Assembly (NCBI GenBank): GCA_963790475.1
Contig: CAWBOS010000012.1
Coordinates: forward strand, 960,001 to 1,024,000
Origin: an uncultured delta proteobacterium
GTDB lineage: Bacteria; Desulfobacterota; RBG-13-43-22
Length of the DNA stretch: 64,000 bases
Direction: 5' to 3'
Shown here: one piece after another, positions 57,332 through 59,431 of the stretch
Position numbering within the stretch: the first letter of the stretch is position 1
Layout: the number at the start of each line of letters is the position of its first letter
The notes under the pieces: model-generated
Seen by the model: only the letters and a program-made list of their open reading frames with translations
Database searches by the model: none
What the model was told of the DNA's origin: nothing
Made by a program: the position numbers and the translations under genes

Positions 57332-57539
57332 ACAAGCACCGCAGGATATTCCTTTTTGAAAGCGTCCTTAGGTGCATTATAGAAGAGGAACAAAAATGAA
57401 TCATGGTGGGTTTTAATGGAAAAGGTTTTTGGGGATCTCTGCGGCCAAAGCCAGAATTTCTCGCTCTACTGGGATACCATTGACCAAGAGCGGGAGGGAA
57501 AGGAAGCTGGGGAGGATAGTCAGCGGGGGTGAACTTGAT

Positions 57540-57819
57540 CAATCATATAGTTCTTCTGGGATCAGGATATTGGGGCCGGAAAGATTTGTCGTGAAATGAA
57601 AATCCCAGATAGAGAAATCTGCCGCCCTTGATGGCCCTTTCCGCCCAATTAAACACCTCCAGCATAATTAACCCCGTGATCCACTGCATAATGGATCATC
57701 TTGATGGCCTCGGGTTCATTGATTTTTGCCTGATCGTTATCGATTACCGGAAGCCGCATAGCCCCGAAACCAAGGGCCGAAACCTGCCAATCAAGTTTAC
57801 CGAAAGGTCGAAACTTCAT
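57540..57819 (-). pseudogene. Collapsed aldo/keto reductase gene
   Basis: RBS + [24 protein letters not shown]...AVDHGVNY, then out-of-frame GRFLYLGFSFHD and SGPNILIPEEL pieces; not in the ORF track. Confidence 0.75.
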
Positions 57820-58125
57820 TGATCAATTCTCCTCCAAAATAGCCACTGAAATGGGTTTGATATTAGTTATTAAGGATTTAAAAGAATATAGACAAAATCT
57901 CAGTACGAGTCAATTCCTATTGATGTTTTGGTGATATCGTTTTAATTGGGTTGGAGAAACAATTTTCTTGAGAACTTAAGTGCTACTTCCTGAAATCTTC
58001 ACTCCTTCATTTCAGAAAAAAGACAAGGGTTCAAAGGATAATTATTAAGTTAACAGTGGAAGCCATGAATTCTGGCCTCGATATTATGGAACGTACTCCC
58101 CTAATGTTCTATCCGAATAATTCCC

Positions 58126-58290
58126 TTGACATTTTCTCTCAATCTGAGTTTATATTTATTTACTAAATAGAAAGTTAACCTCCCAACCAAACCCCGGCCT
58201 TTTTAGGAGTGGGACATGAAGTGGGAGTATCAAAAAGTACTGATACGAAGCCTCCGTGAGGGATCATCCCCTTATGGAGGTTTTTTATTT
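58126..58290 (+). promoter_or_regulatory. Module E: TTGACA promoter-like box, leader micro-ORF MKWEYQKVLIR... (58216-58305) and intrinsic terminator
   Basis: ttgaca at 58126; agttaacctcccaaccaaa; SD aggag; hairpin aagcctccgtgaggg...cccttatggaggtttttt. Confidence 0.6.
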
Positions 58291-58371
58291 TCGACCGACG
58301 TTTGATTTTATTATTATAGGATTGCTGAGAGATTTCAAAGAATTTCCCAAATGATATGAAGGAGTACTATC

Positions 58372-59064
58372 ATGAGTGAACCCAACCGATCTGATAAAAC
58401 TTTTTATATTATCATGAAACGAATGGTGGAGACGGGGGTGGCACCCCACTATACGGAGATAGCGGCGGAGTTAGGGGTTCCTCCAGAGGGCGGTAAAAAA
58501 GCTCTTCAGGATCTTTTCTCCACACCGATGTTCCCTGGATGGTTATATCCAAATACGGATTACATTACTTCTTTTCCACCCTTTAACAACCTTCCCACCC
58601 AGTATCGTTTAACAATTGATGGCCAACAAAAATGGTTCGGTCAATGAGGATTTGAGTCGCTGGCGGTCAGCTGGCTTTTCCCGGGGAAGGTTGTCCGGAT
58701 TGATGCTCCCTGTCTTGACTGTGGATCTCCGATCAAAGTGGAAATGAAAGATGGTGTGGTTGAAAAAACTGACCCAGAAGGTCTTGTTGCCTACACCTGT
58801 GTCCCTCTTCGCGAGTGGTTTAATAACCTGGCCCATTCCTGAAGCACTATGAATCTCTTCCGGTCGGAAGAGCATGTTCGTAATTGGAGCGGTTTCAAAA
58901 CAAACACCGAAGAAGGAATCGTTCCACTGCTTGATATGGCCAGAGGTTTTTCCGGTAATTTTTTTAAGCGCCGTCTGGATCCAGATTATTTTTCTCATAT
59001 GCAGGAATATTTAATGGAGCTGGTCGGAACCTGGAAAGAGATGGGTTCTTTCTGGACACTTTAA
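58372..59064 (+). CDS. MerB (organomercurial lyase)-fold protein with two in-frame UGA codons, probable double selenoprotein (230 aa, U92 and U157)
   Basis: Single frame from the ATG (RBS aaggag) to TAA, interrupted only by TGA 58645-47 and 58840-42; WFGQ*GFESL...PCLDCG...HS*STMNLFRSEEH aligns with MerB YAWCALDTL...HCAATG...FCCHVHFFAS. Confidence 0.85.
58648..58681 (+). promoter_or_regulatory. Candidate SECIS element 1
   Basis: GAGUC-GCUG[GCGGU]CAGC-U-GGCUU stem-loop immediately 3' of the first UGA. Confidence 0.6.
58843..58878 (+). promoter_or_regulatory. Candidate SECIS element 2
   Basis: CUCUUCC[GGUC]GGAAGAG perfect 7-bp stem; G-first loop begins 19 nt after the second UGA. Confidence 0.7.
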
Positions 59065-59149
59065 GGTTGATAATAACAACGAGTAAGGGGCTCGTCAGAA
59101 ATGGCGAGCCGATAGCTTAACGTGTTGAAAACGGATTTGCAATGATTCG

Positions 59150-59185
59150 AAAAGCCTCTAATTCTTTTGAGTTAGAGGCTTTTTC
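59150..59185. terminator. Bidirectional intrinsic terminator
   Basis: aaaagcctctaattc-tttt-gagttagaggcttttt. Confidence 0.75.
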
Positions 59186-59431
59186 TTTCTGAGAAATTAT
59201 CTTCTTACAAATGGCAATGATTTAACTATTTATAATTATAGGCTTTAATGTTATATCATAACGGTATTATCAACACGTTAAGCTATCGGCTCGTCAAAAA
59301 TGGTCCTGCCTTTTTTATGTGGACTTCGAACGGTATTCGATTATTCCCAGGGTTGTCTGGAAAAAGGATTTGTAGGTGCTACTCGGCAGCCATCAGATAT
59401 ATTGACACGGTCTGTCTGGGGAAATCTCTTT

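Follow-up and report, generated by a model that had tools for sequence, protein, structure and literature searches.

A MerB-like gene with in-frame UGA codons at both metal-ligand positions: a predicted double selenoprotein family in Desulfobacterota-type genomes

The question raised by the locus at 58372-59064 is whether two short reading frames are the remains of a broken gene or the parts of one gene in which TGA is read as selenocysteine (Sec), and, if the latter, what a protein related to MerB would do with two Sec residues. To our knowledge, no enzyme other than MerB is known to cleave C-Hg bonds, and MerB does so by means of two thiolates. Mercury is bound far more tightly by selenium than by sulfur. 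The locus lies in a 64,000-nucleotide stretch of DNA from an uncultured delta proteobacterium, and we refer to this whole stretch as the window. A first interpretation of the window, made without database searches (the sequence-only reading), had proposed a single frame interrupted by two TGAs only. Translation of the window agrees with this proposal: the 91-aa ORF (58372-58647) and the 71-aa ORF (58849-59064) share one plus-strand frame of 230 codons plus TAA, in which the only internal stops are two TGAs (Table 1). Given the terminator-like element at the end of the upstream unit, the gene appears to have a start region of its own (58285-58371). Directly upstream of the gene lies a broken aldo/keto reductase gene, and the contamination of the source metagenome-assembled genome (MAG) is 9.68%.

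Table 1. Positions in the window of the MerB-like gene, its predicted elements and flanking features
Feature	Position	Strand	Basis
CDS of 230-residue MerB-fold selenoprotein (ATG to TAA; TGA=Sec at codons 92 and 157), predicted	58372..59064	+	Frame, PF03243, AF2/Foldseek
Ribosome-binding site AGGAG, with ATG 7 nt further on	58360..58364	+	Direct sequence reading
UGA1 = Sec92, MerB Cys96 position, motif WFGQU[GA]FE	58645..58647	+	MerB alignment; family conservation
GAG = Glu95, MerB Asp99 (proton donor) position	58654..58656	+	MerB alignment; family conservation
SECIS-like hairpin 1: 6-bp stem GCUGGC/GCUGGC (two G.U pairs), loop GGUCA	58659..58675	+	Fold, codon freezing
CxxC = Cys114-Leu-Asp-Cys117; first Cys at MerB Cys117 position	58711..58722	+	MerB alignment; invariant in alignment A1
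UGA2 = Sec157, MerB Cys159 position, motif [SA]U[SA]TMN.FRSE	58840..58842	+	MerB alignment; family conservation
SECIS-like hairpin 2: 7-bp stem CUCUUCC/GGAAGAG, GGUC tetraloop	58855..58872	+	Folding energy, covariation, codon freezing
Terminator-like hairpin and T-run, end of upstream unit	58247..58284	+	Consensus scan only
15-bp inverted repeat, 4-nt loop, 86 nt past the stop; possible transcript end	59150..59183		Inference only

The read-through protein matches Pfam family PF03243 over residues 73-189, with 70.8 bits against a cut-off of 27. Its AF2 model has a pLDDT of 91.1 and a pTM of 0.88, and all 11 Foldseek matches in the PDB at E<=0.001 are MerB or MerB2 (TMq 0.47-0.60). These results support the MerB fold that had been proposed from the letters of the gene. 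The same proposal had placed, by eye, the TGAs on Cys96 and Cys159 of MerB, a Glu on Asp99 and a CxxC on Cys117. A HMMER alignment with solved MerB chains arrives at the same placement, i.e., U92 corresponds to the first catalytic Cys (Cys96), E95 to Asp99, C114 to Cys117 and U157 to Cys159. The canonical triad Cys96/Asp99/Cys159 is not met as such; the residues at its positions are Sec, Glu and Sec, which are chemically analogous. The protein also remains below the cut-offs of the canonical MerB models (NF033555 and NF009710), with 23.9 bits against 200 and 30.3 bits against 193.

Among 102 related loci for which DNA is available, the codon at site 1 is TGA in 100 and TGC (Cys) in two, and the codon at site 2 is TGA in 101 and TGC in one. 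TGG was found at neither site in these loci, and such constancy goes far beyond what chance would give. The sequence-only reading had regarded Trp or other residues at these positions in homologues as a potential refutation; in readable DNA, the codons are always TGA or Cys at both sites and never TGG. The source genome alone carries five MerB-like loci, all with two TGAs and all above the PF03243 cut-off; the fifth, a divergent paralogue, has Asp at the proton-donor position. Two TGAs are also present in 25 of the 26 matches among 41 relatives, and in 33 of the 34 matches among 301 genomes of the phylum. Within the genome-contig loci (80 of 466 stretches), 78 of 80 have the pattern U-E-C-C-U, and all 80 have Glu at the proton-donor position and Cys at both ends of the CxxC. 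This Glu and these two Cys residues are also invariant in alignment A1, whose mean column identity is 72%. The Sec/Glu/Sec family with its invariant CxxC is multi-copy in the source genome and widespread in Desulfobacterota-type MAGs, whose owners are sediment bacteria of the sulfate-reducer type.

Relatives with Cys are known at both sites (L063, L105, P0168, P0198 and P0199). At the level of sequence, the MerB-like family meets the criterion for a bacterial selenoprotein that combines a conserved in-frame UGA with Cys-containing homologues. The U/U, C/U and C/C forms are interleaved on a phylogenetic tree, from which we infer that the Sec/Cys state has changed several times in the family. 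It should be considered that the tree was built quickly under LG+G4, has a midpoint root and only SH-aLRT values as support, and gave long-branch warnings; we draw no direction of change from it.

In the SECIS of the E. coli fdhF gene, the UGA is immediately followed, still within the coding sequence, by a hairpin that carries GGUC in its apical loop. The sequence-only reading had noted a hairpin with CGGUC at its apex after each TGA of the MerB-like gene, and the two hairpins listed in Table 1 bear this out. Their GGUC loops start 17 nt (hairpin 1) and 19 nt (hairpin 2) past the last base of the UGA. The likeness to the fdhF-type element consists of the position within the coding sequence just 3' of the UGA and of the apical GGUC about 20 nt downstream. 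However, the MerB-like gene has two elements within one short gene, and its stems are only 6-7 bp long as drawn, with no bulged U identified.

Hairpin 2 is unusually stable when considered alone (z -2.13; 6 of 200 shuffles fold equally well). In the alignment, 97.4% of its cells are paired, two of its pairs are changed on both sides, and its covariation score is reached by none of 500 shuffles. The folding energy of hairpin 1 is unremarkable (z +0.25; 121 of 200 shuffles fold equally well). Its cells are paired in 99.1% of cases across 88 distinct sequences, and compensatory changes and covariation were sought in these sequences without any being found. Codon entropy is 0.40 inside the two SECIS windows, compared to 0.87 elsewhere (Mann-Whitney p=1e-5). 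Frozen synonymous codons occur in hairpin 1 at L97 (CTG in 91 of 97) and V99 (GTC in 87 of 98), and in hairpin 2 at R164 (CGG in 98 of 99) and S165 (TCG in 99 of 99). Both hairpins are lost in the Cys/Cys variant L063, while in the Cys/Sec variant L105 hairpin 1 is weakened and hairpin 2 alone is intact. The GGUC hairpin seen as hairpin 2 recurs in the fifth, divergent paralogue. A simple fold of the SECIS in selD of the source genome did not recover this GGUC hairpin, and we therefore claim no organism-wide SECIS consensus. A search of the whole window with Rfam at gathering thresholds gave 0 matches. Because we know of no curated bacterial SECIS family in Rfam, this result is not evidence either way. 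We consider the criterion of a SECIS hairpin directly downstream of each UGA to be met, with the caveat that these are predicted elements for which there are no SelB-binding data.

Two further possibilities that would have refuted a selenoprotein, namely missing Sec genes and read errors at the TGAs, do not apply. The source genome encodes selA (629.5 bits), selB (390.6 bits) and selD (394.1 bits), each above its cut-off, and a tRNA-SeC with anticodon tca. Contigs of two DNA and two RNA-library runs have no alternative letters at either TGA. Some joints and loose ends in the read contigs look like other family members that align solely at the conserved SECIS segments, and we did not take them as rearrangements. 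Segments left uncovered by the RNA-library runs, runs contributing a small share and the habitat labels of such runs do not enter the evidence. Evidence of expression is weak, as all of it comes from short contigs of two RNA libraries in which DNA may be present. A tryptic-type peptide across residue 92 would read WFGQ-U-GFESLAVSWLFPGK. That the gene encodes a real double selenoprotein is in our view very likely indeed, although the incorporation of selenium is inferred and there is no protein-level evidence of it.

We compared the family to known systems. Its fold is common to MerB (plasmid R831b; PDB 3F0O, 3F0P, 1S6L) and MerB2 (PDB 5C17), which are the sole significant Foldseek matches. MerB and the family have in common two metal-ligand positions and an acidic proton-donor position, and MerB Cys117 is equivalent to the first Cys of the family's CxxC. 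However, the family has Sec in place of both ligand Cys residues, Glu in place of Asp99 and an extra Cys that makes the CxxC. Its identity to MerB and MerB2 is about 18-20%, and its genes lie outside the mer operon and number up to five per genome in MAGs of anaerobe type.

SaoL (NF040728) has been described as a MerB-like selenoprotein of the nine-gene SAO locus, with one Sec in a CU dipeptide and with Cys99 and Asp102 retained, according to the accessible portion of the description (Haft & Gwadz, bioRxiv 10.1101/2022.07.06.499078). As far as this portion goes, SaoL and our family are both MerB-family selenoproteins of anaerobic hosts, with Sec at the MerB Cys159 position and truncation at the UGA in databases. 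The family differs from SaoL as so described in that it has two Sec residues and a Glu, reads ...HSUST... where SaoL has its CU dipeptide, and lacks a conserved neighborhood. On NF040728, the best of the five matches in the source genome scores 38.4 bits, where the cut-off is 140.

Other two-Sec proteins likewise have two Sec residues that are presumed metal ligands, but they have different folds and carry Sec in short local motifs (CU, UxxU), whereas the Sec residues of our family are 65 residues apart and would be brought together by the fold. NCBIfam models of these other proteins do not match the MerB-like protein at E<=1. The family is absent from a 2026 inventory of 119 families, insofar as that inventory was available, and neither searchable literature nor searchable models gave us an account of a MerB family with two Sec residues. 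Only part of this literature is accessible, and supplements of the surveys cited in PMC13188914 could list the family under another name. The two-Sec MerB family differs from both canonical MerB and SaoL, and it is apparently undescribed so far.

Genomic context gave nothing usable on function. With 1.5-kb flanks at 22 loci, the best cluster of conserved neighbors was present in only 3 loci, and with 6-kb flanks at 84 loci, the best cluster (acyl-CoA dehydrogenase) was present in 10. Among the neighbors of the five paralogues, Pfam recognizes amidase, SDR, glyoxalase, ferredoxin, 3-hydroxyacyl-CoA dehydrogenase, aldo/keto reductase, ETF, sulfatase, cytochrome c3 and CoA transferase, and nothing that belongs to the metal, mer, ars or sao genes. 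The best MerA match in the source genome has 353.9 bits against a cut-off of 454.45, and SaoP reaches 98.6 bits against 295. The search for an SAO locus covered only SaoP and SaoL, and not all nine families. Within this scope, the absence of a mer or sao cluster that was noticed in the window is confirmed: merA, SaoL and SaoP are not over their cut-offs, and there are no mer or sao neighbors.

The sequence-only reading had also suggested a check for hgcAB, and HgcA was indeed found in the source genome. Of the 41 genomes of relatives, 11 combine the MerB-like gene with HgcA and 20 lack the two; the MerB-like gene occurs without HgcA in 5 (completeness 85-100%), and HgcA occurs without the MerB-like gene in another 5. 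HgcA is thus present in 11 of the 16 carriers of the MerB-like gene and absent from 5. Because of the genomes that have only one of the two genes, we rejected a strict link between them. We present no statistics on this co-occurrence because the genomes are kin.

As a whole, the explanation toward which we lean is a stand-alone MerB-fold double selenoprotein that carries out MerB-type protonolysis of C-metal bonds; lysis, binding and substrate are all inferred. For each UGA, recoding as Sec would depend on a separate SECIS hairpin that lies within the coding sequence and carries GGUC in its loop. The two selenolates (Sec92 and Sec157) would hold the soft metal or metalloid center of an organometallic substrate, and Glu95 would protonate the leaving carbon, as in MerB-type cleavage. 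The first candidate substrate would be methylmercury or another organomercurial. Since MerA would take no part, slow release of the bound metal is conceivable, as is its transfer to an unknown acceptor. There is a chemical precedent in that a selone-based MerB mimic cleaves C-Hg bonds and selenoamino acids demethylate MeHg chemically, according to the part of PMC10114901 that was accessible.

For the organometal C-metal lyase function taken by itself, which is an inference, we regard the case as evenly poised. Context provides no support, as the neighbors are ordinary metabolic genes, none of them conserved. An essential Asp is replaced by Glu, the canonical MerB models failed, and TM-scores to MerB are only 0.47-0.60. 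HgcA is missing from 5 of 16 carrier genomes, and no MerA is over the cut-off. Moreover, it can be inferred from chemistry that a pair of selenolates should let go of Hg(II) only with great difficulty, so that catalytic turnover on mercury is doubtful. The more specific hypothesis that the family is a mer-independent organomercury/organometal demethylase of anaerobic Hg-methylating Desulfobacterota seems to us unlikely.

It is possible, although we would call the idea no more than tentative, that the protein does contain two Sec residues yet has no lyase activity. It could bind soft metals or metalloids (Hg(II), methyl-Hg, As, Cd or Cu) with high affinity, as a trap or a chaperone, or it could be a selenium carrier or a redox protein with diselenide cycling between Sec92 and Sec157, possibly together with the CxxC. 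Such roles are compatible with the invariance of the CxxC and with the lack of both a MerA over the cut-off and a conserved partner to remove the product. As many as five copies in one genome would agree with stoichiometric binding or with a variety of ligands, and a bis-selenolate should, by inference, bind Hg very tightly. In addition, redox or metal-binding roles are presumed for most selenoproteins not yet characterized, according to the available part of a 2026 review. However, the proton-donor carboxylate is strictly kept (Glu in all 80 loci listed and Asp in the fifth paralogue), and it is not needed for binding alone. The alignment also indicates that the entire MerB catalytic geometry is conserved.

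Explanations without Sec fare far worse. A reading of TGA as Trp or Gly, whether by an alternative code or a local non-Sec reading, could be invoked because 16 of 23 aligned database homologues have W at both sites. However, all 16 are on contigs of at most 1.9 kb and appear to come from gene prediction under a code in which TGA is Trp; we infer this without their DNA. Several observations make this reading extremely improbable: the lack of TGG in the 102 loci, the true Cys variants, the full Sec machinery, and the use of TGA as an ordinary stop, which ends 15 of the 39 ORFs of at least 250 aa in the window and is a true stop in three members of the family. That the TGAs are damage to a Cys/Cys MerB-like gene, or assembly or sequencing errors, with fragments or no product as the result, might be suspected from the broken aldo/keto reductase, the contamination of the MAG and the splitting of the gene by gene callers (fragments of 91 aa, about 155 aa and about 71 aa in databases, family-wide), but is scarcely credible given the recurrence of both TGAs in many genomes (at 100 of 102 loci for the first and 101 for the second), an otherwise intact and conserved frame, a SECIS hairpin behind each TGA and the agreement of independent runs.

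A natural version of MerB with two selenolates, as in the MerB-fold double selenoprotein that we favor, and with one recoding element per Sec, would be an unusual active site. The family is also a clean natural experiment on the exchange of Sec and Cys, in which the SECIS decays once the codon is Cys. Because the gene is split at the UGAs, standard merB surveys miss the family. Systematic mis-calling of the gene, which is broken into pieces or, on short contigs, given Trp at the two positions, distorts these surveys as well as counts of selenoproteomes. The carriers belong to the dominant mercury-methylating group of sediments, wetlands and soils, and anaerobic mer-independent demethylation pathways remain uncharacterized, so far as the accessible part of PMC10114901 goes. 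If the demethylase hypothesis is true, the bis-selenolate site would capture and cleave trace methylmercury in sulfidic sediment without MerA, and the cells that make methylmercury would also set the rate of its breakdown.

In our judgement, the gene at window positions 58372-59064 (+) almost certainly encodes a real double selenoprotein of the MerB fold. It consists of a single frame of 230 codons that ends in TAA and whose only internal stops are two TGAs, codons 92 and 157 (sites 1 and 2; U92 and U157, where U is selenocysteine). The sequence-only reading had joined a 91-aa and a 71-aa fragment into this frame and had placed a hairpin with a CGGUC apex downstream of each TGA; the ORF list and the read-through frame agree with the former claim, and both hairpins are present. 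Because AGGAG lies 7 nt upstream of the ATG, a terminator-like hairpin precedes the gene and an inverted repeat follows its stop codon, the gene looks monocistronic.

Features of the MerB-like gene and its flanks (window coordinates)
Feature	Position	Strand	Remark
Aldo/keto reductase remnant	57340-57822	-	divergent, directly upstream of the MerB-like gene
Terminator-like hairpin	58247-58284		closes upstream unit
91-aa ORF	58372-58647	+	table-11 ORF list
TGA1, codon 92	58645-58647	+	in-frame internal stop
Hairpin 1	58659-58675		after TGA1; GCUGGC-GGUCA-GCUGGC, CGGUC apex
TGA2, codon 157	58840-58842	+	in-frame internal stop
71-aa ORF	58849-59064	+	table-11 ORF list
Hairpin 2	58855-58872		after TGA2; CUCUUCC-GGUC-GGAAGAG, CGGUC apex
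30-nt inverted repeats	59102-59131 and 59267-59296		93% complementary
15-bp inverted repeat	59150-59183		3' of stop

The two 30-nt repeats flank 135 nt that hold the 15-bp hairpin, and this pair, between the MerB-like gene and a CoA-transferase operon, looks like a small MITE-like element or terminator cassette. On the other side, the aldo/keto reductase remnant retains an intact 56-aa N-terminus followed by stops, and an intact aldo/keto reductase gene (L111:4918-5856, -) occupies the same divergent position upstream of the paralogue L003. The shared arrangement could go back to duplication of a two-gene segment, or the two genes may be loosely paired in function; aldo/keto reductase is absent from the neighbour clusters present in at least 6 of 84 loci.

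Residues 73-189 match the Pfam MerB family (PF03243; E 1.3e-19; 70.8 bits, cut-off 27). All NCBIfam scores are below threshold, both for SaoL, the described MerB-like selenoprotein with one selenocysteine (38.4 versus 140 bits), and for MerB (30.3 versus 193 and 23.9 versus 200 bits), and no other NCBIfam model matches at E<=1. The top PDB sequence matches are MerB2 (5C17; E 1e-6, or 4.7e-8 with the family profile) and MerB. In these alignments WFGQ-U-GF-E-SL falls on MerB YAW-C-AL-D-TL, and ..S-U-STMNLF on ..F-C-(C/S)HVHFF, so that U92, E95 and U157 are equivalent to Cys96, Asp99 and Cys159; Cys114 of the invariant PCLDCG sits on Cys117. The same equivalences had been proposed by eye. An AlphaFold2 model that used a family alignment of 18 sequences has high confidence (pLDDT 91.1, pTM 0.88), and its 11 Foldseek matches in the PDB at E<=0.001 are all MerB or MerB2 (TMq 0.47-0.60), which, with PF03243, supports the predicted fold.

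Both TGAs are conserved far beyond this gene. The protein query recovered four paralogues in the genome of the window (G000), each with exactly two TGAs. Among 41 relative genomes, 16 have matches (15/20 of the same family, 0/20 of other families of the phylum), and exactly two TGAs are found in 25 of the 26 matches, the other being a 96-residue N-terminal fragment. An even sample of 301 phylum genomes gave matches at E<=1e-20 in 29 genomes (18/200 genera), with two TGAs in 33 of 34; the last spans residues 1-83 only. In a scan of 185,579 species genomes, 466 stretches were found to encode a relative, and the best 80 of these all come from MAG records, for the most part titled Desulfobacterales, Desulfobacteraceae, Syntrophales, Syntrophobacteraceae or 'Deltaproteobacteria', with one titled Dehalococcoidia and one Acidobacteriota. 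Positions 92/95/114/117/157 are U-E-C-C-U in 78 of the best 80, the exceptions being loci L063 (C-E-C-C-C) and L105 (C-E-C-C-U). The sequence-only reading had proposed to test whether homologues carry Cys or TGA at both positions, and the 102 loci for which there is DNA all do: TGA occupies site 1 in 100 of them (TGC in the other 2) and site 2 in 101 (TGC in the other), and TGG occurs at neither. It is important to consider that these loci are not independent, as they comprise 88 and 83 distinct 48-nt sequences at sites 1 and 2.

The GGUC loops start 20 and 22 nt from the U of the respective UGA, which we take to be the geometry of the E. coli fdhF SECIS. Folded alone, hairpin 2 is unusually stable (z -2.13; 6/200 shuffles as good) and hairpin 1 is not (z +0.25; 121/200). 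Among 83 distinct sequences, 97.4% of hairpin 2 cells are paired, versus 43-59% with the partner slid; two pairs (11 cells) change on both sides, and the covariation score is reached by 0/500 shuffles. One compensatory change, U-A to G-C, forces a coupled protein change from NLFRSEE to NCFRSEA. For hairpin 1, 99.1% of cells are paired in 88 distinct sequences, none with a compensatory change, and covariation is uninformative. Constraint at synonymous sites backs both hairpins independently. Across 99 distinct coding sequences (without L009 and L019, whose ends are divergent or cut), the mean relative codon entropy of conserved residues is 0.40 in the two SECIS windows (n=13) versus 0.87 at other conserved codons (n=58; Mann-Whitney p=1e-5). 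Frozen codons include Phe163 TTC (98/99), Arg164 CGG (98/99) and Ser165 TCG (99/99) at hairpin 2, and Leu97 CTG (91/97) and Val99 GTC (87/98) at hairpin 1. The Cys/Cys variant L063 has lost both hairpins, and the Cys/Sec variant L105 has a weakened first and a perfect second hairpin, though these natural controls amount to only 3 Cys sites.

A fifth, very divergent MerB-family locus in G000 (L113; C6:349417-349752, -) also has TGAs on both ligand positions, with Asp (U-A-A-D) instead of Glu, a CxxC, and a UUCUUCU-GGUC-AGAAGAA hairpin at the family's distance after the second TGA. On this sequence evidence, two-Sec MerB-like proteins may exist in more than one subfamily.

TGA is not generally reassigned here, since it terminates 15 of the 39 window ORFs of at least 250 aa and is a true stop, after the homologous region, in family members L003, L011 and L022. 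The Sec machinery that the sequence-only reading called for is complete in the genome (6.34 Mb in 20 contigs, with completeness 100 and contamination 9.68): selA (629.5 bits), selB (390.6) and selD (394.1), all above curated cut-offs, and tRNA-SeC with anticodon tca (aragorn); selD itself contains one in-frame TGA. The intact selA (G000:C20:490-1848) is on a 3.2-kb contig, and a second copy (G000:C13:443305-444664) is in four pieces with TAA and frame changes. As contamination stands at 9.68%, a second organism could be the source of some of the features that are multi-copy in this MAG.

Errors at the TGAs would have refuted the reading. None was seen: contigs from two DNA and two RNA-library runs, placed on 58300-59120 at >=88% likeness, carry no variant letter at either TGA. 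Contigs of the RNA libraries span both TGAs, which hints only weakly at expression, given that DNA can be present in libraries of this kind. Depth in metagenome and metatranscriptome contigs climbs 10- to 100-fold only over 58636-58691 and 58832-58887 (in run X2, ~309 and ~700 at the two SECIS segments versus 5-10 elsewhere), which fits many family members sharing only these nucleotide-conserved segments. The two ~50-nt stretches could act as nucleotide probes for the whole family.

A HMMER search of 1.84 billion representatives gave 655 matches at E<=0.001. Frequent fragments are 91 aa ending at residue 91, ~71-77 aa from residue 160, and ~155 aa with Cys at site 1 and ending at residue 156, which we take to be Cys/Sec forms; full-length Cys/Cys relatives occur at 24-40% identity. 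A word-indexed search gave 497 matches at E<=1e-10, named, where at all, 'hypothetical protein' or 'Alkylmercury lyase'. Among 23 of these 497 database proteins that were aligned (P0152-P0215), 16 have Trp at both sites, all from contigs <=1.9 kb, three are true Cys/Cys (contigs 4.5-210 kb) and four end before site 2. The Trp/Trp entries are probably gene calls with a TGA=Trp table, an inference made without the entries' DNA and backed by the lack of TGG in the 102 loci. Calls of this kind are a systematic artefact of annotation, by which selenoproteins on short metagenome contigs are concealed.

A quick maximum-likelihood tree was computed from 76 rows. They comprise 46 loci that remained when the 99 distinct sequences were thinned at 80% identity, together with 14 fragments presumed to be Cys/Sec, 15 database proteins of the Cys/Cys type and the fifth paralogue, whose position is unsure on a long branch. 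One starred clade of 51 rows takes in 44/45 U/U rows (residues at sites 1/2), plus 4 C/U and 3 C/C, while C/U and C/C make up the deeper branches. The starred branches imply a minimum of 5 changes in the U/U label, and the four close G000 paralogues are spread over different subclades. Because the root is a midpoint and there were long-branch warnings, we infer no direction of Sec/Cys change.

Genomic context says little about function: no conserved neighbour gene was found in 84 loci, and the genes adjoining all five G000 paralogues are ordinary metabolic genes. As the sequence-only reading had noted for merA and sao in the window, no MerA, SaoL or SaoP (another SAO-locus family) reaches its cut-off in G000. 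HgcA, which it proposed to look for, is encoded there (L109; C10:447409-448386, -; NF040863, 438.6 bits versus 275; NVWCAAGK motif). The L109 open frame extends N-terminally, with a CC dipeptide where most HgcA proteins have a CU motif according to the Haft & Gwadz preprint. Co-occurrence of HgcA and the MerB-like protein is loose (41 genomes: both 11, MerB-like only 5, HgcA only 5, neither 20).

A serious rival is that the protein is a trap, chaperone or redox protein, because a bis-selenolate should bind Hg(II) very tightly, which counts against a catalytic Hg lyase, and because MerA is lacking over cut-off. What mainly speaks for protonolysis of a C-metal bond in the manner of MerB is that two soft ligands and a carboxylate are strictly retained on the MerB catalytic positions. 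A review of demethylation (PMC10114901) reports C-Hg cleavage by a selone-based mimic of MerB and chemical demethylation of MeHg by selenoamino acids, and describes anaerobic mer-independent demethylation pathways as still uncharacterised. We infer a C-metal lyase with about even confidence, and methylmercury demethylation in vivo, specifically, appears unlikely although it is possible.

In SaoL, as described in the Haft & Gwadz preprint, the single Sec is part of a CU dipeptide, Cys99 and Asp102 are retained, and the gene belongs to a nine-gene SAO locus. The two-Sec family, in contrast, scores below the SaoL cut-off, has neither the CU motif nor the SAO locus, and carries a second Sec and a Glu. 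SaoL (CU, 1 Sec) is the sole MerB-like entry among the 119 prokaryotic selenoprotein families/subfamilies in Table 1 of a 2026 review, and the single such entry in a 2022 review, as far as these sources were available. At the level of listings and abstracts, no description of a two-Sec MerB was found in the open-licence PMC/bioRxiv literature that was accessible, supplements aside, and an earlier description elsewhere is not excluded. With the MerB-like selenoprotein SaoL already known, what is apparently new here is a family of MerB-type selenoproteins in which the site is bis-selenocysteine and the gene itself contains two SECIS elements.
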